From a virus (lineage: Duplodnaviria > Caudoviricetes), in the IMG/VR virus record IMGVR_UViG_3300032130_000001, positions 1-53,271 of that record: DNA of 53,271 nucleotides, one strand, 5' to 3'. Shown here piece by piece: positions 3,210-51,497 of this stretch. The first letter of the stretch is position 1, and every line of letters begins with the position of its first letter. Position numbers and translations under genes: made by a program. A model generated the notes under the pieces. The model was not told the DNA's origin. It was given only the letters and a program-made list of their open reading frames with translations, and searched no databases.

Positions 3210-4402
3210 AATATTCTCCCGAGTACTATGAAAAAATAGAACAGTATAAACGTGCTCATACGGAGGGTATGTACACTCGAGGTAGTAGGGACCCAGCCGA
3301 TAAAATTCCACGAAGAGTAGTTGCACCTTCTATAACGATGCAAGGTGAAGGAATAATGCGGAATGCTAGCTATTTTGCTAACACTACTGTTATTACTCGC
3401 ATGTTAGGTGGTGAAAGATTTATTAACAGTGTACTAGATTACGGTAGTGGAAAGCCAGTTCCACTTACGTTTACACCAGGTAAAGCTGGAGAGTATGACC
3501 CTTCACGAGCAGCTTCTGAGGGTAAGAAGACTCGAGACGATAAACATGTACAAGATTTTTTATATCCACAAAACCAACAGGATTTTATAGAGTATATCGG
3601 TGTTGGTAATAATTTCTATCAGTGGGATCCAGCAATACCAGGAATAGATGATCCTCTTCCACCAGGTGCACAGTGGGATCAAGTGTGGTGTTCGGATGTT
3701 CTAGAACATATACCAGAACAAGATGTGGATGCAGTACTTGATGATTTATTTGCTCGAGCTCGTATATCATTAGTGATATTGATTAGTGCTAGTCCAGGAA
3801 AGCAGATGTTTAGGGATGATGATTACGAATTCGACTATCAGGGAATGAGGGAAGAAGGGGAAGATTTATACAATATTCAACACGTTCCTGAATCGGATAG
3901 ACAATCACTAAAAGCTGGTGATGATCTTCATTGTACGGTACGGGATGCTAAATGGTGGATAGATAAGATAAATAAACAAGCAAGGGCAAGGAATTGGCAA
4001 GATGCAGACGGAAAGTTTTTAAGATGTTCTATTAAAACTGGTCCTGATCAAAAGGGAACGACTTCAGTTCGAGAGACTAGATGGTTTGGAAAGAATCCTA
4101 AAGGACTAACACCGGATACTATGCCAGTGATACAGCGGCAAGGTCAGTGGTGGGAAGATTTTGATAGGATACTGATTGAAAAGAAAGTATATGAGATGGC
4201 ACGGTTTCCAACGTATCGATATGAACAGTGGCCGAAAACTCCTCCGAAAAGGGGTCACGGCAATATGATATACTGGAAAAAGACTGATATGAAAAATCAT
4301 CAAGCTGGTAAGGCAGCACAGCATAAACCCGGTTCTTGGGAATCATCACGAATAGATAAACCATCGAATAGAAAGAGGAATGCAGACGGTACAATAAAAT
4401 GA
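3206..4402 (+). CDS. class I SAM-dependent methyltransferase-like protein with insertions
   Basis: VLDYGSGK motif I; WDPAIPG; DQVWCSDVLEHIPEQDVDAVLDDL; LHCTVRDAKWW. Confidence 0.75.
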   Translation: MKYSPEYYEKIEQYKRAHTEGMYTRGSRDPADKIPRRVVAPSITMQGEGIMRNASYFANTTVITRMLGGERFINSVLDYGSGKPVPLTFTPGKAGEYDPSRAASEGKKTRDDKHVQDFLYPQNQQDFIEYIGVGNNFYQWDPAIPGIDDPLPPGAQWDQVWCSDVLEHIPEQDVDAVLDDLFARARISLVILISASPGKQMFRDDDYEFDYQGMREEGEDLYNIQHVPESDRQSLKAGDDLHCTVRDAKWWIDKINKQARARNWQDADGKFLRCSIKTGPDQKGTTSVRETRWFGKNPKGLTPDTMPVIQRQGQWWEDFDRILIEKKVYEMARFPTYRYEQWPKTPPKRGHGNMIYWKKTDMKNHQAGKAAQHKPGSWESSRIDKPSNRKRNADGTIK

Positions 4403-5283
4403 GATTTGCATTGAAAATACTAAAGTACTTTTTAATATCATTCTTCGTTCTATCAGCAGTAAGAGGACAGTATGCGGTAGGAGATACGATAGATAATTTC
4501 AGTTTGGAGATTTGTGAGAATGGAGAAGGTACATGGGAGTATCATCAAGATGGTGTAGGTAATGTTGTATGGATGAATCTCTTCACGTCATGGTGACCAA
4601 GCTGTCAAGCGGAGGCTCCGTTGTCTGAAAATATGTGGCAAAATTATCAAGACCTACCGGTAGTAGTAATGGGTGTAGGTAGTGATTGGAGTACTTACTC
4701 TTGTGAAGGATGGGTTAATGCATTTGGAATAACATATCCAATGTTAGATGATTACGCTTCAACGGTTTATTGGTTATTCGGTGATGGGTATATTCCGCAT
4801 AACGTTATACTAGATCATCAAGGTGTTGTACTGTATTCACAATCAGGATTTAATTCAAGTGCTATTATAAGTGTCATTAACAGTGCATTAGATAATATAG
4901 ATGCCGATAATGATGGTGTTTATAATGGTAATGATAACTGTCCAGATGATTACAATCCAGAACAAGAAGACGAGGACGGTGATAGTATCGGTGATGCGTG
5001 TGATCCATGTAATAGTTTAGTATTTACCGGTGGAGATTTAAATACCAATCTAACACTTGATATAGCTGACGTCTTACTGTTGGTCAATATACTAATAGAC
5101 GGTGAAGGACCACAGTGTCAAGTAGAATCAGCTGATATGAATGCTGATGGATTAATAAATGTTTTAGACGTTATAACAATGGTTCAACTAATATTGAACG
5201 GTACTGAGGAACAAGCATTGAGATATTTGGAAGAGAATTTTGATTACATCCCAATGACAACGATCGAGTACGAACAACGATGA
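4399..5283 (+). CDS. secreted thioredoxin-fold redoxin (AhpC/TSA/TlpA-like) with UxxC motif, thrombospondin type-3 repeat and dockerin-like domain; probable selenoprotein (in-frame TGA at 4594-4596)
   Basis: Track ORFs 4399-4596 and 4621-5283 are in the same frame. Read-through gives VVWMNLFTSW-U-PSCQAEAP. It also has an N-terminal signal peptide, ITYPML, YIPHNVILD (cis-Pro loop), DADNDGV..DNCPDDYNPEQEDEDGDSIGDACD, and paired GDLNTN..DIADV / ADMNADGLINVLDV. Confidence 0.8.
4606..4623 (+). promoter_or_regulatory. candidate bacterial-type SECIS hairpin
   Basis: CA-(A)-GCGGA-GGC-TCCGT-TG stem-loop, with the loop G 17 nt after the TGA. Confidence 0.55.
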
Positions 5284-6452: not shown

Positions 6453-7610
6453 ATGACAAACAACATTATAGTAAAAATTGAATCTGTTTCAGCTACTCGT
6501 ACCAGGGCCGTAGCGGCCGATGGCACGGATTACTCAGCTGAGATGCCTTCATACAAGCGTAAACAGATCTTAGCCGAGACCGGTTATGCTGTTCGCAAGG
6601 AAGGTAGCACTGGAAGAGTCTTCTGGCGTCCAGTGTCTGAAGCTGACTACAACGCTACAAGAGCTGTGGAGACTACGGTTGATGATACTCCCTCGGATCA
6701 TAAGGAGATTACCAACTATATTCACACATCTTATAAACTTAAGCCTCGCGGCCTGATGATGAACGAGATCAAGTGGAAGTATCTCGTCAGGTCTGCCGTA
6801 AGAGGTAAGAACATTATGATGACAGGTCCCGCCGGGTGTGGTAAGACTATGGCTGCTAAAGCTTTAGTCACGTCTCTCGACAGACCTGATTTCTACTTTA
6901 ACATGGGTTCTACACAGGATCCTAGAGCTTCCCTCATCGGGAACACCCATTTCAATAAAGAGACGGGTACCTACTTCTCAGAGGCCCTCTTCGTGAAGGC
7001 TATCCAAACTGAGAATGCAGTGATACTTTTAGACGAGTTATCCAGAGCTCACCCAGACGCATGGAATATTCTAATGACGGTCCTCGACGAAGGACAGCGT
7101 TACCTTAGACTGGATGAAGCAGAGGGTCAGTCTACGATCGAAGTGGCAAAGGGTGTCACATTCATCGCAACAGCTAACATTGGTAACGAGTATACCGCAA
7201 CTCGAGTAATGGATCGGGCGTTAGTTGACAGGTTCACCCAAATTGAAATGGATGTACTTAACCAGGATGATGAGACAACGCTCTTAACAATGATTTATCC
7301 AAACGTCAAGGAAGACCTTATTGGTAACGTTGCCGAGTTTGCGTGGGTAACCAGAGTAGAGGCTGGTAACGACGAAGGTAAGCTCAGCACCCATATATCC
7401 ACTAGGTCAACCGTAGAGATTGCAGGGTTGCTGTACGACGGGTTCAGCCTAGCCGAGGCAGCAGAGGTAGCAGTACTACCCAAGTTCGACAACGCTGGTG
7501 GCCTCGAGTCAGAGAGAACCTTCGTAAAGCAGTTACTGCAGAAGTACACCGCAGACGGATCTGCCGAAGAGCTGTTCGCGGACGCAGACGAAGAGGAGTT
7601 AGACAATTAA
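6453..7610 (+). CDS. MoxR/CbbQ-type AAA+ ATPase
   Basis: Walker A GPAGCGKT, Walker B ILLDELSRA, sensor-1 ATAN, and MDRALVDRF arginine finger. Confidence 0.92.
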   Translation: MTNNIIVKIESVSATRTRAVAADGTDYSAEMPSYKRKQILAETGYAVRKEGSTGRVFWRPVSEADYNATRAVETTVDDTPSDHKEITNYIHTSYKLKPRGLMMNEIKWKYLVRSAVRGKNIMMTGPAGCGKTMAAKALVTSLDRPDFYFNMGSTQDPRASLIGNTHFNKETGTYFSEALFVKAIQTENAVILLDELSRAHPDAWNILMTVLDEGQRYLRLDEAEGQSTIEVAKGVTFIATANIGNEYTATRVMDRALVDRFTQIEMDVLNQDDETTLLTMIYPNVKEDLIGNVAEFAWVTRVEAGNDEGKLSTHISTRSTVEIAGLLYDGFSLAEAAEVAVLPKFDNAGGLESERTFVKQLLQKYTADGSAEELFADADEEELDN

Positions 7611-25436: not shown

Positions 25437-25507
25437 GCGAGTATCGTATAGCGGTAATACCCCAGCCTTCCAAGCTGGTGACGTCAGTTCGATTCTGTCT
25501 ACTCGCT
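25437..25507 (+). tRNA. tRNA-Gly(TCC)
   Basis: Acceptor GCGAGTA/TACTCGC, anticodon arm CCAGC-CTTCCAA-GCTGG, T-loop TTCGATT, discriminator T. CCA is not encoded. Confidence 0.92.
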
Positions 25508-25573
25508 CAACGGGATATTCCAAATGCAGTTAATATCACTTCTTGATACTAACGGACTACATAATATAATTAA

Positions 25574-27702: not shown

Positions 27703-27857
27703 TGCCTAAGAAGAAGACTAAAGGTCAATTCTCAAATTACAAGAAATGGAAATCCGATGAAGGTTACACATTTTTTGCGAGAGACAAGGATGATGCAAAA
27801 TTGTATCTTAAAAAGATGGATCATCTTGGTAGTGGTTTCGCAGAGGTGAAGTCTTGA
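27702..27857 (+). CDS. small basic protein (not in track)
   Basis: [28 protein letters not shown]...; coupled at both ends. Confidence 0.55.
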
Positions 27858-28558
27858 GACCAATTCCAAATTGTTTTATTGAAGATAATCATCTCATCAA
27901 TAAAAAACTAAAAGAGGTTACAGTTGAAGAAGGATTAGAAATTGCTAAAGAACTTCTTGAAATTATGGCCACGAGAAAAGACGCTATTGGTTTAGCGGCT
28001 AATCAGGTTGGTATTGATGCTCGTGTGGCCGTTGTTAATGTTAGAGAACCTCTTATCTTAATTAATCCAGAAATTACTGAAGAGTTTGATGAAATAACAT
28101 TTTATGAAGGATGCTTATCGTTTCCAAAAAAGGGCGTCTATACTAAACGTTATAGAAATGTTGTTGTTAAGACTGCTCAAGAAGAAAGTGGATGGTACTT
28201 TAGTGGTAATGAACAGAGTCATGATGGAAAGGGAAGTTGGGAAAAATCTAAGGTTGATAAAGATAATGAGTTGAGATTATTAGAAGCAGTGGCAGTTCAA
28301 CACGAAATAGATCATTTAAACGGAATAACTATTCATGACAATGCAACACCATTACAACCAATAATTGCAGAAAAGAAACCTGGTCGTAATGAAAAGTGTC
28401 CGTGTGGTAGTGGTAAGAAATATAAAAAGTGTTGTCTCAATAAACCAAAAGCTACAGATCATCAAGATAGACACTGGCAAGATATTGAATATGAAGGAGC
28501 CAGAAATGCTCCATTAGAAGAAGGCGGATGGGCTACAAGTAATACTCAAAATGAGTAA
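27854..28558 (+). CDS. def: peptide deformylase with C-terminal SEC-C zinc motif
   Basis: [23 protein letters not shown]; [19 protein letters not shown]. Confidence 0.92.
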
Positions 28559-30692: not shown

Positions 30693-31133
30693 ATGGGTGT
30701 AATTAAAAGTAGAACAGAAGTTCGTGCTCCATACGAAATCGTAAAGAAATTATTTTTAGATCGTGAAGGAAAACTATTTAAGTTTTTAATTCCTTCGTTT
30801 TGTGAAGTAACTCATTACAAAGGGATTCGTCGAGGCGCCGTAATTAAATTGAAACTGTTCGATAAACCATGTGAATTTAAAGTGATAACATATTCTACAA
30901 ATAAAAATAAAACATCGTTCAACTATATTATTACCAAAGGAGACATCTTTAATGCAAAGTTTTGGTCGCATAGGCATTTCATTGAACGATATGAGGACAA
31001 TACGGTTATAAGAGATGAATTAGCATTTACGTCTAAAAATAAAATACGAGACGCTTTCCTTCATGCATTTTTGTTTTGTTCATTTCGAATAAGATCTTTA
31101 AAGTACAAGATCTTTTTATTTTTCAACAAGTAA
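30693..31133 (+). CDS. SRPBCC/START-like protein
   Basis: RTEVRAPYEIV..FWSHRHFI..TVIRDEL. Confidence 0.6.
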   Translation: MGVIKSRTEVRAPYEIVKKLFLDREGKLFKFLIPSFCEVTHYKGIRRGAVIKLKLFDKPCEFKVITYSTNKNKTSFNYIITKGDIFNAKFWSHRHFIERYEDNTVIRDELAFTSKNKIRDAFLHAFLFCSFRIRSLKYKIFLFFNK

Positions 31134-31144
31134 AGGAGATAATA

Positions 31145-31372
31145 ATGGCACAAAAATCATGGCCCGAAGAGCGGTCTGAGATAGCTATTTGGTTGTCTGG
31201 CTTTTTAGGAACGTATAAAAAATGGGTTGATAAGATTTTGGATAATGACGATCATGAAGTAACAAAAAATAAAATAGTAGATTTACTTTCAGATTGGATA
31301 GCAAAATTAGAAGAAGAAAGAACGAAGATATTAAAGATGTCAGATACTATTCATGAATCTACAGATGAGTGA
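31145..31372 (+). CDS. hypothetical helical protein
   Basis: AAGGAG RBS. Confidence 0.6.
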   Translation: MAQKSWPEERSEIAIWLSGFLGTYKKWVDKILDNDDHEVTKNKIVDLLSDWIAKLEEERTKILKMSDTIHESTDE

Positions 31373-31384
31373 TATTTATTATTG

Positions 31385-31717
31385 ATGAATAGAATACTTG
31401 AACAATCCTCGAATACTACTAGTTATTCAGCCGACCCGGGTGAACCGGATACTGGTTGGGTTCCAGGTGGAGAAGTTAGAATGTTAGGCTTTGAATCCGG
31501 AAAACCGGAATCATGGTTTCATCAGCTGGAATTTGAACAGGTAGAATTTCCTGTAGCAGATCATATTTATGGGAAAGGTGTTAAAGCTGTGTATAGCGTT
31601 ACTAAGAACGTTCAAGTAGTAGATCTTAAAAAGATGATGAAAAGTATTGATGCTGACATTGAAGAAATTAAAAACAATACATCCGTAATGTTGGGTGATT
31701 TGAAAAAGAGAAAATAA
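31385..31717 (+). CDS. hypothetical protein
   Basis: Follows an ATATTTAT motif. Confidence 0.6.
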   Translation: MNRILEQSSNTTSYSADPGEPDTGWVPGGEVRMLGFESGKPESWFHQLEFEQVEFPVADHIYGKGVKAVYSVTKNVQVVDLKKMMKSIDADIEEIKNNTSVMLGDLKKRK

Positions 31718-33477: not shown

Positions 33478-33884
33478 GGGCCCGCTGGGTATCGACGGGT
33501 GTTTTTTGACAATTGAGTGCAGCAGAGTTTGAACAAGACTCGAGACAAAAGGTTCACTAACCAAATTGGCGAATTTTCGCTAGACGGGTTGGTAATAGAT
33601 TGGCATTTAGCCGATACTGATTCAGCACCACTTGTTGGAGCTGAGCTGGCTTACCAACCGACTTACGCTTACGCTTAGGTCCTTGGGTTGTCTGACACCC
33701 GAGTATAAAATAAGTTAGACAAACAACTCTATGTGTGAGAGTATAAACACACCAGTTAATGGATATGTTCTGCAAAAGAAATCCACATGGTTGTTTGCTA
33801 GTTGCTACCAATGGAAACTAGCTAAGCTGTAACGACTCATTGTTAATAGCAGGCCGGACGGGAGTTCGAATCTCCCCGGGTCCA
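33478..33884 (+). ncRNA. ssrA: tmRNA
   Basis: 5' GGGCCCG..ATCGAC and 3' GGACGGGAG-TTCGAAT-CTCCC-CGGGTCC-A. The acceptor stem has the G3-U alanine determinant. Internal tag ORF at 33568-33678. Confidence 0.92.
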
Positions 33885-33912
33885 CAAGATATATGAAAAA
33901 AGTTATAAAAAA

Positions 33913-44004: not shown

Positions 44005-44304
44005 ATGCCATATAGTCAAGAAGAATTAGAAGCAAACGAACATTATACTTCCTTAAAAGTTCGAGATGAAATAAAATATAATCAAGAATACGTATTTTCC
44101 AGAGATAAGTGGCTTGCTAAAGGTGGTGAAGCACATGATTCATTTAGAAATGAAGATGACGTTATTCAATTGTATGAAGATCCAGAAACGGGTGACTCAT
44201 TTCCTACACCAAATCAACATTTACGGATTTGGTTATACCAAGTAAGATATAGAACCAACGCAGCCACTAAGGATATACTGGATAGAGAATTTAAGGAGTT
44301 CTAA
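44005..44304 (+). CDS. hypothetical structural-module protein
   Basis: AAGGA RBS; TAATG coupling. Confidence 0.6.
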   Translation: MPYSQEELEANEHYTSLKVRDEIKYNQEYVFSRDKWLAKGGEAHDSFRNEDDVIQLYEDPETGDSFPTPNQHLRIWLYQVRYRTNAATKDILDREFKEF

Positions 44305-47300
44305 TGCCTAGCTCAAAAACACGCAGGTCAACAGATATTCCTAAAAAGTTATATGATCTAATAGCATTACCAGATGCAAATGATTATACAACATATAGGG
44401 ATGGTGTACAATATCCTCAATTTTCAGGAGAAGGTTATACGTCCGTAAAGTGGCCTGATGCTCTATTCGGTTTAGATCCTAATGATATTATTAGAATAAA
44501 CATTTATGGAAACAATAACGAATTAATTGCTACAGAATATGTTACCCATGATAAATTCGAATCGTTTATAAATTCAAGTATTCCGAGTCATCCAGCTATT
44601 GTTAGTTTGGATGCTGGTAAAATTTTAAGAGATCTCGGCTATCGTAGAGGAAGATTTCATTTGACTTTTGATTTTATGAGGATAGAAGCTGGAGGACCAT
44701 TTCCGTTATTGGTTAATGGAGCAGAAAGGATATTTAAAGGTTCTTTTGAAGAAACTGAAGGCAGTATTTTTGCAGCGGAACCGCATATTGATTCTGAAAC
44801 AAATGAAGGCGATCCACTATATGTAAAAGAAAATAAATTTATTCTTCAAGAAATATCATCTGGTAAGGATGAAGTTATAGTATCTCCGGCGTTTATTAAC
44901 GATGAGAGTTATAGGGAACGATTTAGAATGGCAGCATATAACTGTCTTAATTGGTTTCCAGAAGAAGGAATGACGGCTGGGTTTCCTGGAATAACATCAA
45001 ATTTTATAACATTCAATACTGGAACAAATTTACCAAGAAATTGGGTCAATGGAACAATAAGAATTAATGATGCTTATTTTATGGGAAAAAGAATAACCCC
45101 TGAAGAAACTGATGTTTTAGTAGTAGAACCAGAAATTGATATAGAAAGCAGAAGACCAAATTTGCTTGGCGATATGAATATGGATAGTTTATTTGGATGG
45201 GCAGCTCATGGATCATGGCCAAATGCTGGAGTACTGCTAAGCGATAACGGTTTCGGACACAGAGCATTGTTTTTAGATGCCGTAGCCGAACCAAATCCAG
45301 CAGGTCAATTGGCAATCAGAGCAATTATACAGAATACTATCCACTTAGATTATGAGAGTCGCCATCCAAGTTCTCTTGTTGGAACTAACTTATCTTTTAA
45401 TTTAAAATCATTCGATTGTCCAGTTGATCTAGAAGGAGTAACCTTTACAACTAGCGCGTATGTAAATGCACCGTCTGGAAGTATTGTACGATTAAGAGCT
45501 CACTCTGGTCCATGGGGAATAAGTGGAAATGATGCAGTGTCCGGACCATATACTGCTACTGGTGAATGGCAAAGAATTTCTCATACTTTTACTCTAACAA
45601 ATACATCAACTAGGGCTTTACAAATAAGATGTCAATGGGATCCAAGAAATGCAGGAATAGATCCCTCTCAAGAATCAAGTTTGGGTCAATATGCTACGTG
45701 GGCTGGAGCTCAGTTAGAACAGGGTTCTTCTATGACACCGTTTACTCGATCACAAGGTTTTGAAGATGGAACAGTAGAAGTTGCAATAAACGGTACTATT
45801 AAATTTCAAGATCCGGATGGGGTTTTAATGAATGCAGTTTTTGCAGACGGTGATGATACGTTTACTCCAATTATGACTGGAGGAACTTTAAAAATTCATG
45901 ATGCAATTGCGATTGATGATTTATCTGAAGTTACAATGTTTAGCGATGCAGACATAGAAACAATATTCGAACCAACAGTTATTCCGAAAGATGGTGACGA
46001 AGGAAAACCAGGTGGTTTCTCACCAGAAGGATGGGATCAAGAATTAAATGGACAAGCTATAGCTGTAAGAGATGAAAATGGTGATTTTATATGGAGTAGT
46101 GGATATAACGCATTTGGATCTGGAAACAAATGGTCTAATGCTGGTACCGCAAAACATGGATACCAAGCCCAATGGAGAAAGGGTAAGGGAGTCGATGGTG
46201 GTCCAGCTATGTTTTTCCCAGATTTAAATTATCAAAGTTATATTTTAGAAGCTATGAGAGCGGCTGCTTTAGAGGAGTGGTCAAATCCAGCTAAGAGTTG
46301 GTATCTTACTCGGGGATTGGCTGATCCTCGTTTTGATAACAATACACAGTTGGCTAGTTGGTGGCCACATAGATGGATGGGAATTGCATGTGGATGGAAT
46401 ACTATTGGAGCATTGGCTGCGTATGGTGTAAAACCAGGAGATACTATTAAAGTAAGTTGGATGCAAAAATCGGCTCCGGTAAATTTTGATCAGGGTGGTA
46501 GAAAAGGTGCAATGATTGGACTAGATCACTTTTTACTTGATGAATTAACACCTCCAGAGCCTCCAGTAGTTGAAGCAAGTGAAGTGTACGAAATGGATAA
46601 AGCAATTTACGAAGCGATGAGTGAAGTAAATGTGTTTGATATAGCTACTGATTGGTTCGATCCGGAAGAAATTGTAGAGGGTGAATACGTTAATATAAGA
46701 CCAGATTCGGGTGATACACCAGAGGGTTTCTATGTAGTATCACCTTCAGATTATCCAGAAGCAAAACCTCCACCACCCGCTCATAACTCTCCAGGAGCAA
46801 GAAGTCCAAGCGGAATATGGCTAGTAACGGATTTAGATGAGCAAGAACGTAGGGGAATATTAGATGAAATAGAAGAACTAGAACGGGAAGATTATGAATC
46901 CGGACATTTTAAAGAAGGTGCGTACATAGCTCAAAGAGCAAAATTACAACAAAGATTAAATAGCATGAATCAGGGTGGAAGTGCCAGAAAATCTTGGACA
47001 TTAGATGGCGAAGTATCAAGTGATTTTGAGTGGAATCAGAGTCAGAATCAGTGGATTTTAAGAGTAGGTGTAGAGAATCGAATGGTGGGTGAGGTTAGAC
47101 CAGGTTTTGTTAATATAAATGGTGCATTGGTTGAAAGTGAGGCGTTTGGTTGGAGATGGAATGGTAGTTCATGGGAATCAAACTATGTTTACTTAGGAAA
47201 TTTGGGTTCCACTACAACGGGTCTTTTTAGAATAGTTTCACACGATGGATTTTTATTTGAAGCTTCTAATGTAAGTTTTTATCCAAGTAGGGATGATTGG

Positions 47301-50300
47301 GTTTCAACAAAAAATATTTCAGCAGATGAAAATTGGACTTGGAAAGGAATTGATGGATGGGTTTTAGATGATAGTGTTGAAACAGAAGAAACGGCTGATG
47401 GAAGACATATTGTAAGAGTTAAAACGATGAGATTGGATAGAGCGCACATTAGTGGTGGTGATAATGAGGGAGATGGAACCACTATGCACTATCTTCCATG
47501 TAGTCTATACAATGAATGGGAAGAAGTATCGTTTGATTTTGTAGTAAGTGAAGAGTTTAGTTTAGAAGATAACACGTGTTTACGAGTATACGGACATAAA
47601 GGTGATTACGGAACACTTTATGTTGATAGTATACGAATAGATTTACTTATGACTTCAGAAATGAGAGCATCAGTTGATGATACAGCATTATTGGCACCAT
47701 TAGAACTAGTAATTGATGAAGTTGTTGATTCTAATACTATTAGAGTACAGAACACTTACGAGGAAGCAGCGGAACAACAAGGATCTGTTCTTTCTAATTT
47801 TAGAGTTAATAAATATTCTACATTTGATAGAGGATTTGAAGTCGATTATGTTAGTGTTCCAGCTAGTGAAGATAATGTCTACGCAAGATACGAGGGAAAA
47901 GTTTTAGATGTTGTTAACGATGATGCACCAAAAAAGATTGTAGTTGATAAAACATATCAAGAATTTGGACAAGAAATAAATGCAATAATGTCAGGATCGG
48001 AAGCAGTTAACGCAACTACTGCATTTGAAGATTATTTTGTTAGATATCGAATAAATGATCCAGATAATTTATACACATATATGATTACTGGTCCTGATTC
48101 TAAAACGCTGATTACAAATTTTAAACCGGTAAATTCTGAAAATTATCCGGGATCAATAGCATATAAATTATTAGAACCACTTTCTGATGATTTTGAACCA
48201 CTAGACATGGTTTATATTGCAAAAGAAGTTACACCGTCGTTAACAGAAACTGTAGATTTAATACCGTTTTTAGATGAAAAAATATCAGATACAGTATTAA
48301 GGTTACCTAGATTTCAAGATTTAGAGTCTCCAATTAGAGAACGACAAACAGAATATTTATCTCATACTGATATTGTTGGAAACGGTAAATGGGTTAGAGA
48401 ACAATTAGAAAATAAATTATTAAGTGGAAGTCTTGAAACAGCAAAAATTAATGTAGATTACAGGCAATATAAAAACTTTGTACATTTTGGTTCAGCCGAA
48501 AAACGATTGTACAATATGAAAACAAAGCTTACTAATTTAGAATTGTATCAAAATTATAGTTCATCATTAACTGGAGATTTAAGTGGATCAGGATATTTAG
48601 GAAGTTCACAAGGGACTTCAGTTAGTGGATCTGCAGTTGATATTCAAAAATGGGAGGATTCAGCTAGAGAGGTTATTAATGCTTTTGATGATTTTGAAGA
48701 ATACATGTACGTTCAAAGTTCTTCATATATTACCAGTTCAATAGGAGAATTTTATGATAACGCTGCTCCTAAATTATCCGGTGATGGTACACTAACCAAT
48801 CCGTATCAGCTGTATTCAGTTTCTAGTTCTGTATTTACTACGTGGTACAGTGCTTCTCAAGTAACTGCTAAAGTTTATGATAGAAATAATGCAAATAGAT
48901 TGGTTAACTTATTACCAGAGCATATTTCTTATGATCAAACAAATAATCAATTCTTAACATTTATGGATATGATTGGTCATCATTACGATAATATTTGGTC
49001 CCATGTTGTTGCATTAACTGATGTACATGATAGAACAGAAGATGTAACTAAAGGAATTTCTCAAGCTCTAGTAGAACCGGTTGCAAAGGGATTTGGTTTT
49101 GAAATGCAAGAAGGAAGAGATCTTGTTAGATTACCTCAATATTATTTAGGATTACAAGAGTCCGGTTCTCAAACTGGAGTATTCAATGTTAGATGGAGTA
49201 AGAAATCTCAAAAAGATGTAACAAGAGAAATATGGAATAGAATTCTTGCATCGATGCCTTACATATTAAAATCTAAAGGTACCAAACAGGGATTAAAAGC
49301 AATAATTGCAGCGTATGGTATACCAACATCAATATTGAGAACGCAAGAATACGGTGGACCTAAGATCGCTGGAGAAAAAGATTACGAAATAAAACAAAGA
49401 TTTACAAAAGCATTAGACTTTCAGGGTGGTCAATATCTTGAAGCACCGTGGTATCATACTGGATTTGGACGAACACCAGATACAATTGAAATGAGATTTA
49501 AAACACCGTATGAAGTTGATACTGTGCTAGCGCAAAAGGTTAATTCTACGGATGGAATAGATGCTTCGATTTATATTACAAACGTAACAGCATCGGATGC
49601 TAAAGGTAGAGTTGAATTTGTAATGAGTAGTAGTGGTCATGGTGAATACAGTATGAGTTTAGGGGAATACTCTGTATATAACGATGAATATTGGTCATTA
49701 ATGTTAAGACGTAGAAGTACAATATCATCGTCAATATCAAGTTCTTATGATAGTATGCATGTTCTAACTGATGCTGATCCGTTAACTCAAAGTTTTGATT
49801 TATTCTTGGGTTATTATGATTCAGGAATAGATGAAGTTGTAGTTGCAAAATCTGCTAGCATGGATATATCAGGAAGTTTATTAGCAAATTATTATAGAAC
49901 AAGTAGTGTTGCCGGAGATGATAATTGGTATTTTGGTGGTAAGCGAAACGATGCTAGAAGAGGGTCTAGATTTTCTGGTTCGATGATGGAAATAAGATAT
50001 TGGGGAACACCGTTAACATCATCTGCATTTTATAACCATGTAGCGGCTCCAAAAGCAGTAAATGGAAATCATATTAGTTCATCGTATTATGATATGTCAT
50101 ATAGACTTTCATTAGATGATTACATTAATTTGAGTACTACTCCGTATGGTTTAAAAGATTATTCACTTACAGATGGTCAATTATATGCAACTGGATCTGG
50201 ATTTGCAAATGAAATTAATTTTAGTAATGTATCAGATAGACAGAAAGCATTTACTCCGGCAATTGGATTGGGAAAGAAATCTAATAAGATAAGAATTGAA

Positions 50301-51497
50301 GGTAGTATATTAAAAACTCCCGATGGATTACCAGCAGTTTTAAGTCCTACAGAAAGAGTTGAACTTGGTTCTTACGACTTAGCAGCAAATGATTCTAATA
50401 AGTTGGGAATATTCTTTGCACCGAGCGATGTTATAAACGAAGATATTATATTATCATTAGCAGATATGGATTTTGGTTCTTATCTTGGAGATCCTCGAGA
50501 TGATTTTGAAGAAGATTACTATTATGGAAGATTTAAACGAGTAGCAGATACATATTGGCAAAAATGGACAACAAAGCAGGGATTCTGGGATTATATTAAA
50601 TTGATCAAATATTATGATTTAAGTTTATTCGATCATCTTAGAAGAGCTGCGCCAGCTAGAGCTAAGAAAAATATTGGTCTTCTTATTGAACCAACAATAT
50701 TAGAACGATCTAAAGTTGTTGTGGGTGCTCCTCCATCCATGGAAGATTTAAAGAAAAGAGCCATATTAGATCTGACACATCGTTTTCCTGTTTCAGGTTC
50801 TCAGCAAAGATATAGAGGAATATTAGATTATATAGAATCGTATCAAGTAAGTGGATCTGATGTATTACAAAGAAATGGAATTTTAGATACAGATCTTGGT
50901 GGTGAAATAACAAGTACTAAAGAAATAAGAGAGGCTTTATTTCATTGGGATTCTACTCAACCTACCGGTAGTAATTTATTGGAATACGGAACAATACCAC
51001 TTCCTGGAACTGCAGTGACTGCATCTTCAGAACGTATTGATTTCGAAACTTCCGGTTCGGATGGAGTAATAGCAACAAATATTTCTAGCTTTAATTTTCA
51101 AACTTTACAGGAACCAGTAGATTCGTACAATGATTATAGTGGTTCGTCAATATCAACTGGTGGCGGGGATACTATTTTCTTTGAAGTATTACCGCCAAAT
51201 GTAACGGGTTCAAGATTGGCGAGATACAATCAAGATACTATTCCGTATTTTTCATCCAGTTTATCAGCATCTTATAATTTATCGTATTCATCTTCTTTAG
51301 AACAGAGTGAATATGAATCCGTGTATGATTCTCATACAGCATTAGAAAATTTAGCGTATAATGGATGTAAAGAGGATGGTTCAACTGTACCGTTTGGAGA
51401 ACAATTAAGTGTTGAAATTTTCGAAACTAATCCGTATCAAGTTAAGACTGATTCTACTGGTGGCACATATCTAGACACTGAATTAAAAGGTGAATAA
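44304..51497 (+). CDS. 2397-aa baseplate/tail protein with carbohydrate-binding-like and LamG-like domains
   Basis: NFVHFGSAEKR, FMDMIGHHYD, LKSKGTKQGLKAIIAAYG (baseplate wedge-like); TATGEWQRISHTF..AQLEQGSSMTPF (CBM-like); TIEMRFK..FSGSMMEIRYW (LamG-like). Confidence 0.75.
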   Translation: MPSSKTRRSTDIPKKLYDLIALPDANDYTTYRDGVQYPQFSGEGYTSVKWPDALFGLDPNDIIRINIYGNNNELIATEYVTHDKFESFINSSIPSHPAIVSLDAGKILRDLGYRRGRFHLTFDFMRIEAGGPFPLLVNGAERIFKGSFEETEGSIFAAEPHIDSETNEGDPLYVKENKFILQEISSGKDEVIVSPAFINDESYRERFRMAAYNCLNWFPEEGMTAGFPGITSNFITFNTGTNLPRNWVNGTIRINDAYFMGKRITPEETDVLVVEPEIDIESRRPNLLGDMNMDSLFGWAAHGSWPNAGVLLSDNGFGHRALFLDAVAEPNPAGQLAIRAIIQNTIHLDYESRHPSSLVGTNLSFNLKSFDCPVDLEGVTFTTSAYVNAPSGSIVRLRAHSGPWGISGNDAVSGPYTATGEWQRISHTFTLTNTSTRALQIRCQWDPRNAGIDPSQESSLGQYATWAGAQLEQGSSMTPFTRSQGFEDGTVEVAINGTIKFQDPDGVLMNAVFADGDDTFTPIMTGGTLKIHDAIAIDDLSEVTMFSDADIETIFEPTVIPKDGDEGKPGGFSPEGWDQELNGQAIAVRDENGDFIWSSGYNAFGSGNKWSNAGTAKHGYQAQWRKGKGVDGGPAMFFPDLNYQSYILEAMRAAALEEWSNPAKSWYLTRGLADPRFDNNTQLASWWPHRWMGIACGWNTIGALAAYGVKPGDTIKVSWMQKSAPVNFDQGGRKGAMIGLDHFLLDELTPPEPPVVEASEVYEMDKAIYEAMSEVNVFDIATDWFDPEEIVEGEYVNIRPDSGDTPEGFYVVSPSDYPEAKPPPPAHNSPGARSPSGIWLVTDLDEQERRGILDEIEELEREDYESGHFKEGAYIAQRAKLQQRLNSMNQGGSARKSWTLDGEVSSDFEWNQSQNQWILRVGVENRMVGEVRPGFVNINGALVESEAFGWRWNGSSWESNYVYLGNLGSTTTGLFRIVSHDGFLFEASNVSFYPSRDDWVSTKNISADENWTWKGIDGWVLDDSVETEETADGRHIVRVKTMRLDRAHISGGDNEGDGTTMHYLPCSLYNEWEEVSFDFVVSEEFSLEDNTCLRVYGHKGDYGTLYVDSIRIDLLMTSEMRASVDDTALLAPLELVIDEVVDSNTIRVQNTYEEAAEQQGSVLSNFRVNKYSTFDRGFEVDYVSVPASEDNVYARYEGKVLDVVNDDAPKKIVVDKTYQEFGQEINAIMSGSEAVNATTAFEDYFVRYRINDPDNLYTYMITGPDSKTLITNFKPVNSENYPGSIAYKLLEPLSDDFEPLDMVYIAKEVTPSLTETVDLIPFLDEKISDTVLRLPRFQDLESPIRERQTEYLSHTDIVGNGKWVREQLENKLLSGSLETAKINVDYRQYKNFVHFGSAEKRLYNMKTKLTNLELYQNYSSSLTGDLSGSGYLGSSQGTSVSGSAVDIQKWEDSAREVINAFDDFEEYMYVQSSSYITSSIGEFYDNAAPKLSGDGTLTNPYQLYSVSSSVFTTWYSASQVTAKVYDRNNANRLVNLLPEHISYDQTNNQFLTFMDMIGHHYDNIWSHVVALTDVHDRTEDVTKGISQALVEPVAKGFGFEMQEGRDLVRLPQYYLGLQESGSQTGVFNVRWSKKSQKDVTREIWNRILASMPYILKSKGTKQGLKAIIAAYGIPTSILRTQEYGGPKIAGEKDYEIKQRFTKALDFQGGQYLEAPWYHTGFGRTPDTIEMRFKTPYEVDTVLAQKVNSTDGIDASIYITNVTASDAKGRVEFVMSSSGHGEYSMSLGEYSVYNDEYWSLMLRRRSTISSSISSSYDSMHVLTDADPLTQSFDLFLGYYDSGIDEVVVAKSASMDISGSLLANYYRTSSVAGDDNWYFGGKRNDARRGSRFSGSMMEIRYWGTPLTSSAFYNHVAAPKAVNGNHISSSYYDMSYRLSLDDYINLSTTPYGLKDYSLTDGQLYATGSGFANEINFSNVSDRQKAFTPAIGLGKKSNKIRIEGSILKTPDGLPAVLSPTERVELGSYDLAANDSNKLGIFFAPSDVINEDIILSLADMDFGSYLGDPRDDFEEDYYYGRFKRVADTYWQKWTTKQGFWDYIKLIKYYDLSLFDHLRRAAPARAKKNIGLLIEPTILERSKVVVGAPPSMEDLKKRAILDLTHRFPVSGSQQRYRGILDYIESYQVSGSDVLQRNGILDTDLGGEITSTKEIREALFHWDSTQPTGSNLLEYGTIPLPGTAVTASSERIDFETSGSDGVIATNISSFNFQTLQEPVDSYNDYSGSSISTGGGDTIFFEVLPPNVTGSRLARYNQDTIPYFSSSLSASYNLSYSSSLEQSEYESVYDSHTALENLAYNGCKEDGSTVPFGEQLSVEIFETNPYQVKTDSTGGTYLDTELKGE

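Follow-up and report, generated by a model that had tools for sequence, protein, structure and literature searches.

Thioredoxin-fold proteins of the redoxin type that carry selenocysteine (Sec, U) in a UxxC motif are listed as selenoproteins of marine bacteria in PMC2398784 and PMC13188914, as an earlier note on the DNA studied here had stated. In the texts searched, virus-encoded selenoproteins are documented only for two poxviruses, molluscum contagiosum virus and fowlpox virus, whose products are glutathione peroxidases (PMC8310308). Huge wastewater phages carry genes for the selenocysteine tRNA (tRNA-Sec), and selenoproteins were only suggested for them (PMC10747093). A re-analysis of Global Ocean Sampling data gives viral sequences as absent or very few, except in the class II ribonucleotide reductase, plastocyanin, and Cu-Zn superoxide dismutase families (PMC9402790); the words "phage" and "virus" are absent from two reviews of prokaryotic selenoproteins (PMC13188914, PMC9312934); and no description of a phage selenoprotein gene was found among the search listings and matched passages. 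Here we describe a redoxin gene at positions 4399 to 5283 of a 53,271-nucleotide stretch of viral DNA (IMG/VR virus record IMGVR_UViG_3300032130_000001, hereafter the window), which very probably encodes a phage selenoprotein made with host machinery.

The gene shares with the marine UxxC selenoproteins its fold, its Pfam families, the place of the Sec codon at the head of the motif, the existence of Cys homologs at that position, a bacterial-type selenocysteine insertion sequence (SECIS) hairpin right after the UGA, and a marine uncultured setting; unlike them, it belongs to a family that lies on phage genomes in a clade of its own and whose redoxin domain is joined to thrombospondin-type repeats, a dockerin, and mostly a type IX secretion domain. 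ResA, TlpA, and CcmG (DsbE) give the best sequence and structure matches and have in common with it the position of the W-C-x-x-C motif, the proline of the I-P-H motif (P133), an N-terminal extension, and a location outside the cytoplasm, which is predicted for the window protein. They differ from it in that the window protein would carry Sec in place of the first Cys, is predicted to be soluble and secreted with C-terminal modules rather than membrane anchored, and has no cytochrome c maturation genes linked to it within the window. As with the poxvirus enzymes (PMC8310308), a host-derived selenoprotein gene would be decoded by host Sec machinery, and the fowlpox SECIS element also lies in the coding region; those cases differ in involving single genes of eukaryotic viruses, a eukaryotic SECIS, SBP2-type decoding, and another enzyme family. 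The tRNA-Sec genes of the huge phages (PMC10747093) likewise point to Sec decoding during phage infection, although the situation is the reverse of ours: here the selenoprotein gene is present, and neither the window nor any of five related records yielded a tRNA-Sec. Both the type of enzyme and the way of recoding are known already; what is new, as far as the literature searches reach, is that they occur on phage genomes, in a diverse clade under selection.

Positions 4399 to 5283 (+ strand) form a single reading frame whose sole internal stop is a TGA at 4594-4596, so that the two apparent open reading frames (ORFs) described in the earlier note are indeed one. Gene calling with translation table 11 splits the frame into ORFs of 65 amino acids (4399..4596) and 220 amino acids (4621..5283). 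The codons of the redox motif are TGG TGA CCA AGC TGT, or W-U-P-S-C, and a PDB sequence search (E = 2e-11) puts residue U66 opposite the first Cys of WCxxC in ResA, where the earlier note had placed it. Two DNA runs, independent of each other and from different studies (X2 and X4), gave contigs that cover positions 4000-4904 and 4000-4935 and differ from the window at one position each, neither of them at the TGA; an assembly error replacing TGC or TGT, against which the earlier note had cautioned, is not seen in either. Independent assemblies from other studies carry the same sequence over both gene junctions and the TGA. A contig from an RNA library spans 4428-4634 and bridges the TGA. Six RNA-labeled runs contain parts of the stretch, and DNA carry-over is possible in them; two were compared (X15 and X16), both as contigs, in which the uncovered parts of the gene carry no meaning.

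To place this codon in a family, homologous DNA was gathered from three collections with search patterns that left out the Sec site, giving 16 loci from species-representative genomes, 15 from IMG/VR together with L001, and the best 80 of 512 metagenome relatives. Among the 113 sources examined, 108 loci cover the motif, and all 108 carry TGA at the Sec column. These loci correspond to 102 distinct coding sequences (CDS) and 84 distinct 48-nt windows, at least three contigs being present twice, from two collections. The other five sources are three distant paralogs without any CxxC (L015-L017) and two fragments that stop short of the site (L106 and L129); an extra match to the motif pattern in L047 lies in another frame and is unrelated. 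The TGA might still be a true stop in a split or decaying gene, of which only a 65-residue N-terminal peptide, or a 220-residue protein from the TTG at 4621, would be made. Table 11 calls exactly these two ORFs, and most database entries are the shortened downstream product (e.g., P0002, 220 amino acids). However, a stop that 108 of 108 loci retain at precisely the catalytic codon, across 40 to 100% protein identity, does not amount to decay. A product begun at 4621 would have no signal peptide and no redox motif, and it would miss the initial strands of the fold; moreover, the downstream "start" codons vary among homologs.

Selection acts on both sides of the codon. In the phage clade described below, the median ratio of nonsynonymous to synonymous substitution rates (omega) is 0.276 before U (1005 pairs), 0.322 in the redoxin part after U (1109 pairs), and 0.336 in the C-terminal modules; between the window copy and L050, the corresponding values are 0.10, 0.10, and 0.20. 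The selection on either side of the TGA is purifying, and the relaxed downstream half that a pseudogene would show, as the earlier note had foreseen, is not observed. We regard a true stop as extremely unlikely.

Of 151 genomes sampled in the phylum to which one host-type genome belongs, 47 hold relatives of the gene, many with one in-frame TGA and some with none. Twelve matches without a stop were retrieved and eleven aligned; nine of these eleven Marinimicrobia homologs have WCxxC at the Sec column, and two are missing the first Cys. No Cys was found at this column within the close family (0/108), so the close homologs are not Cys proteins, the outcome the earlier note had warned of, and no reversal from Sec to Cys was seen in the phage lineage. 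The alternation of Cys and TGA that the note had suggested looking for does occur, but only toward the distant Marinimicrobia homologs. In five paralogs (L015-L017, L145, and L146), the redox motif has been lost altogether, with sequences such as ..DADNFTSRTEAP.. and ..PTSRSC..; these redoxin-domain paralogs are presumably not redox active.

We then turn to the hairpin. The earlier note had pointed to a GC-rich hairpin with a loop G 17 nt downstream, and this description holds: in the window copy, the structure begins 11 nt past the UGA, the 6-bp apical stem around the loop GGC is intact, and the first loop G lies 17 nt past the A of the TGA. The consensus spacing of bacterial SECIS elements served for comparison. 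All copies are free of gaps in the alignment from the W codon onward, and the consensus runs UGA, 8 nt, CUGU, C, A, the 6-bp stem around GGC, U, and ACAG. The fold energy of the single sequence is no better than that of shuffled sequences, and the significance of the hairpin rests on comparative data. We scored 11 named pairs in 84 distinct sequences (924 cells) against 500 shuffles. Paired cells make up 84.5% of the total, versus 34.5 to 46.4% when the 3' partners are slid by 1 to 3 columns; the covariation score is 0.265 versus a shuffled mean of 0.147 and was reached by 0 of 500 shuffles; and 62 cells are changed on both sides, where 20.6 are expected. The earlier concern that the hairpin might not be conserved is thus not borne out.

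Each of the three variable apical pairs shows several pair types (pair 20-30: CG 61, UA 17, AU 3, UG 2, other 1; pair 19-31: GC 34, UA 15, GU 9, UG 5, AU 4, CG 3), and these pairs tie a nonsynonymous base in one codon to the third, synonymous base of the Pro codon. The invariant core GGAGGCUCC freezes synonymous sites that are free elsewhere in the same genes: Glu is encoded by GAG in 100 of 102 hairpin cores versus 483 of 1803 codons elsewhere (27%), Ala by GCT in 100 of 102 versus 525 of 1607 (33%), and Pro by CCG in 76 of 102 versus 157 of 1308 (12%). Neither the GGAGGCUCC core nor the GGAGGCTCC core is present in the nine WCxxC homologs. The only variant without the GGAGGCUCC core (L045:5163-5210, with the same 48 nt in a second locus) reads GAA GCA CCT and keeps the TGA; by eye, this place could hold a different 4-bp stem, in which CUGA pairs with UCAG.

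The most likely host is a member of the Marinimicrobia (Fidelibacterota), and Sec machinery was examined in five Marinimicrobia genomes that hold a cellular homolog of the redoxin. tRNA-Sec (anticodon tca) is found in four of the five; SelB scores above the cut-off in four, and SelA, its gene adjoining selB, is likewise found in four. SelD is encoded in all five, each time with one in-frame TGA. The five selD genes (L168-L172) thereby make SelD itself a selenoprotein in every one of these genomes (G-S-G-U-A-C/S-K), with a hairpin that starts 10 to 11 nt after the UGA. This selD hairpin has 5 to 6 bp, stands at the same distance from the UGA as that of the window, and has its loop G 18 nt past the UGA. 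We also considered the GGAGGCTCC core as a general SelB motif of Marinimicrobia, which the data do not establish: in a search of the five genomes for TGA N8-30 GGAGGCTCC, the 14-nt spacing was matched only in the redoxin family and its paralogs, and other spacings were about as frequent as in a reversed-pattern control. Clusters of redoxin-family paralogs occur in Marinimicrobia genomes (G001:C8:9164-25843, G002:C37:99963-110539, and G005:C23) and include TGA copies with U-G-Y-C and the same hairpin core as well as dockerin-only relatives. On the viral side, neither the window nor five related viral records (32 to 70% complete) gave a tRNA-Sec above the cut-off, and no SelD was found in those five records.

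A further question is whether the TGA is decoded without selenium, as Trp or Cys, through near-cognate read-through, a suppressor tRNA, or a Cys-charged tRNA-Sec-like tRNA. No result identifies the inserted residue, Cys works at this column in the distant homologs, and some gene callers place W there; P0004, for example, equals L057 translated under code 4 (96% identity), with W at both TGAs. Yet TGA is a normal stop in the neighboring genes, as the earlier note had stated: among 51 window ORFs of at least 100 amino acids on the + strand, 26 end in TAA, 16 in TGA, and 9 in TAG, and the start ATG of the redoxin gene overlaps the stop of the upstream gene (ATGA, 4399-4402). The family members themselves stop with TGA in 40 of 91 copies with a complete 3' end (TAA 38, TAG 13), so TGA is read in two ways within single genes, which indicates context-dependent recoding rather than a reassigned code. 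The RNA genes of the window are a tRNA-Gly and a transfer-messenger RNA (tmRNA) only, with no suppressor tRNA. With Trp in place of the CxxC nucleophile, redox chemistry would be lost, yet purifying selection acts on the domain; were Cys inserted, one would expect TGA to have given way to TGC or TGT now and then, and this is seen in 0 of 108 loci. A conserved hairpin at SECIS distance and a complete Sec machinery in the cellular lineage fit Sec. Decoding without selenium is, in our judgment, unlikely.

The same codon shapes the annotation of the family. Public protein sets hold the family only with the N terminus cut off or translated under code 4, which puts Trp at the Sec site, so catalogs of viral genes miss it. 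The full-length entries with W (P0003, P0004, P0006, P0008, P0010, P0012, P0023, and others) run past the real TGA (..LLKWLTTKS) and are gene-caller artifacts.

Could this be a genuine selenoprotein gene that is not phage-encoded, the contig being cellular DNA from an island of Marinimicrobia, a chimera of the assembly, or a record wrongly classed as viral? Its closest relatives in cells, which are genes of Marinimicrobia, have the same architecture. CheckV rates this IMG/VR virus record as only 27% complete, which places the whole genome at probably about 190 kb; many window ORFs are without a PHROG match, and a tmRNA and a tRNA are also present. Against this, a homolog of a baseplate wedge protein lies in the window in a tight, same-strand array with accessory genes typical of marine phages, and all long ORFs of the window except one share that strand. 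The PHROGs matches are the baseplate wedge protein, a CobS-like ATPase, a methyltransferase-like protein, and a peptide deformylase, and peptide deformylases and CobS-like ATPases are typical accessory genes of marine phages. Other window genes surround the redoxin copy in 30 of 112 related loci, many of them IMG/VR records of 40 to 131 kb, and in none of the genome-derived loci L002-L017. Assemblies from other studies independently bridge both gene junctions.

Phylogeny separates the two settings. A maximum-likelihood tree of 82 complete copies splits into two groups with a Shimodaira-Hasegawa-like approximate likelihood ratio test (SH-aLRT) value of 100: the first has 55 rows, including all 24 phage-linked copies and no genome-derived copy (0/13), and the second has 27 rows, including all 13 genome-derived copies and no phage-linked one. 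With the Cys homologs added, the phage-linked rows still form one clade without cellular rows; the six outgroup rows do not form one group and have long branches, leaving the tree with no firm root and compatible with transfer in either direction. Protein identity ranges from 40 to 100% over all TGA-bearing loci and goes down to about 43% within the phage lineage. More than half of the sampled words of the stretch are found in fourteen DNA runs from at least 11 studies, indicating that this phage is widespread in marine samples. Among GenBank phages (INPHARED), no close homolog was found; the only match, in a gut phage record, has 31.7% identity over a third of the query. The redoxin gene stands on a viral record among viral genes, and the cellular genes nearest to it belong to a group that could plausibly supply the host; in these respects, it has the marks of a host-derived accessory gene (auxiliary metabolic gene or moron). 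We consider it very unlikely that the window copy is not phage-encoded.

Together, these results point to a selenoprotein gene on a fragment of a large marine tailed phage. In the mechanism that we propose, the host's Sec-tRNA(Sec) and SelB would read the UGA at 4594-4596 as Sec. The small hairpin within the CDS, whose start lies 11 nt past the UGA, would recruit SelB in the manner of bacterial selenoprotein genes. Only the mRNA signals would be the phage's own, with SelA, SelB, SelD, tRNA-Sec, and selenium coming from the host; we infer this borrowing of host machinery, as well as a benefit of the redoxin to the phage. The protein would be exported by the Sec (general secretory) pathway and would act as a reductase or isomerase of disulfides outside the cytoplasm. 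Its predicted domain order is signal peptide, redoxin, calcium-binding thrombospondin-type repeats, dockerin, and a short tail, and the nucleophilic active-site residue of this TlpA/ResA-type oxidoreductase would be the selenocysteine of U-P-S-C.

Several observations weigh against this reading. Sec insertion, in this gene as in every family member, is deduced from sequence comparisons, and the RNA-library contig may come from contaminating DNA. In the window copy, the lower stem of the hairpin has 2 of 4 pairs (8 of 11 pairs overall), and the fold of 4585-4680 does not beat chance (z = 0.96; at least equal stability in 163 of 200 shuffled versions). The SECIS families of Rfam gave no match at the gathering threshold; at E values up to 10, the sole Rfam match on 4560-4680 was an HIV stem-loop model (10.9 bits), a chance hit. 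Since the GGAGGCTCC core is confined to the redoxin family and its paralogs in the five genomes, it is not established as a phylum-wide SelB site. With the phage records being fragmentary, the phages may encode sel genes themselves. The host is named from the nearest cellular homologs alone, and 4 of the 13 genome-derived loci bear the Marinimicrobia name. Finally, 31 of the 55 rows of the phage clade are short contigs of unknown origin.

On a broader scale, we lean slightly toward the view that a large marine myophage lineage, with hosts that are probably Marinimicrobia, has kept this Sec-containing surface redoxin through deep divergence, with decoding by host SelB and tRNA-Sec and mostly type IX export. 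If so, phage fitness would be tied to the ocean's selenium supply, and gene callers would be systematically overlooking a class of viral accessory genes, the selenoproteins. A phage clade that is diverse, under selection, and equipped with UGA and SECIS would show that phages exploit bacterial Sec recoding, that the Sec system is active during infection, and that selenium is a possible resource for viral accessory functions. The short, well-defined hairpin would offer a compact SECIS element as an experimental handle for reporters.

The domain assignments of the window protein are collected in Table 1. Pfam places the thioredoxin fold in PF00578 (AhpC-TSA; 40.8 bits, cut-off 26) and PF08534 (Redoxin; 39.3 bits, cut-off 26.6), and PHROGs matched no family to the redoxin. 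An AlphaFold model built from 35 homologs has a mean predicted local distance difference test (pLDDT) score of 82.8; its best Foldseek matches are ResA, DsbE, and CcmG, with template modeling (TM) scores of 0.83 to 0.86 on the target. In the model, U66-P-S-C69 sits at the N terminus of helix 67-83, which starts directly after U66, and P133 of the I-P-H motif is invariant. A peroxiredoxin proper (AhpC/TSA, T/S-x-x-C) was considered and rejected, the motif being W-U-x-x-C and the PDB peroxiredoxin match reaching only E = 0.18 versus 7e-11 for ResA. The enzyme may reduce or isomerize disulfides outside the cytoplasm, and a peroxide-type oxidant is possibly a substrate.

Table 1. Coordinates of the redoxin gene, its elements, and neighboring genes in the window
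Feature	Position	Strand	Remarks
Whole redoxin gene	4399..5283	+	294-residue precursor, putative Sec at residue 66, terminal TGA stop 5281-5283
In-frame TGA, putative selenocysteine U66	4594..4596	+	First position of the U-P-S-C motif 4594-4605
SECIS-like hairpin inside CDS	4602..4627	+	Apical stem 4608-4613/4617-4622; loop GGC 4614-4616; lower stem 4602-4605/4624-4627
N-terminal signal-peptide-like segment, residues 1-23 MRFALKILKYFLISFFVLSAVRG	4399..4467	+	Read from sequence; helix 2-18 in model
Thioredoxin-fold domain, TlpA/ResA/DsbE type, residues 27-153	4477..4857	+	Pfam, PDB, Foldseek
Thrombospondin type-3-like calcium-binding repeats, residues 166-206	4894..5016	+	PDB thrombospondin-2 and COMP, E 3e-15 to 2e-13
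Dockerin type I domain, residues 212-263	5032..5187	+	PF00404, 25.9 bits (cut-off 22.9); PDB dockerin chains, E 0.002-0.003
Conserved C-terminal tail, 25 residues (..RYLEENFDYIPMTTIEYEQR)	5206..5280	+	Alignment A2
CobS-like AAA ATPase gene	6453-7610		PHROGs; gene most often shared with related contigs
Peptide deformylase-like gene	27854-28558		PHROGs

All homologs have a comparable hydrophobic N terminus followed by Q-(T)-Y-x-V-G-D, and the signal-peptide-like segment suggests that the redoxin is exported. The thrombospondin-like repeats score below the cut-off of Pfam TSP_3 (16.2 versus 25 bits) and have low pLDDT. Copies vary in length, the cellular ones being mostly about 500 or about 310 amino acids and those of the phage clade mostly 355 to 385 amino acids, with an end matching the type IX secretion sorting domain (Por_Secre_tail, PF18962). 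This domain is found on most relatives, including phage-linked ones, and these would, from their sequences, be displayed via type IX secretion. It is not found on the window protein, whose tail (5206-5280) matched no Pfam family; the window form may remain periplasmic or follow another sorting route. L042, L036, L066, and many database entries are also without PF18962 and have a tail of the type ..ENFDYIPMxTIE.. instead. Copies with this tail, a subset of the phage clade, do not form one branch of the tree, which suggests swapping of C-terminal modules.

Elsewhere in the window, a second selenoprotein candidate was considered at the TGA at 31370-31372, which lies between two ORFs in the same frame (31076..31372 and 31382..31717), open on both sides. 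In seven related loci, no homolog of the second ORF was found beside homologs of the first; because these loci do not keep the pair together, this TGA was read as an ordinary stop. The tmRNA gene lies at 33478-33887 (+) (Rfam RF00023, 62.6 bits, model positions 1-374), with a 21-residue tag peptide predicted by ARAGORN. As a link to the host it was set aside, since only its last 31 to 33 nt match Marinimicrobia genomes (90 to 91%), and this end is universally conserved and carries no information on the host. The tRNA-Gly gene (anticodon tcc), at 25437-25508 (+), is the only tRNA gene in the 53-kb fragment. Downstream of the baseplate wedge homolog, a 2397-residue ORF (44304-51497, +) has no PHROG family at E = 1e-5.

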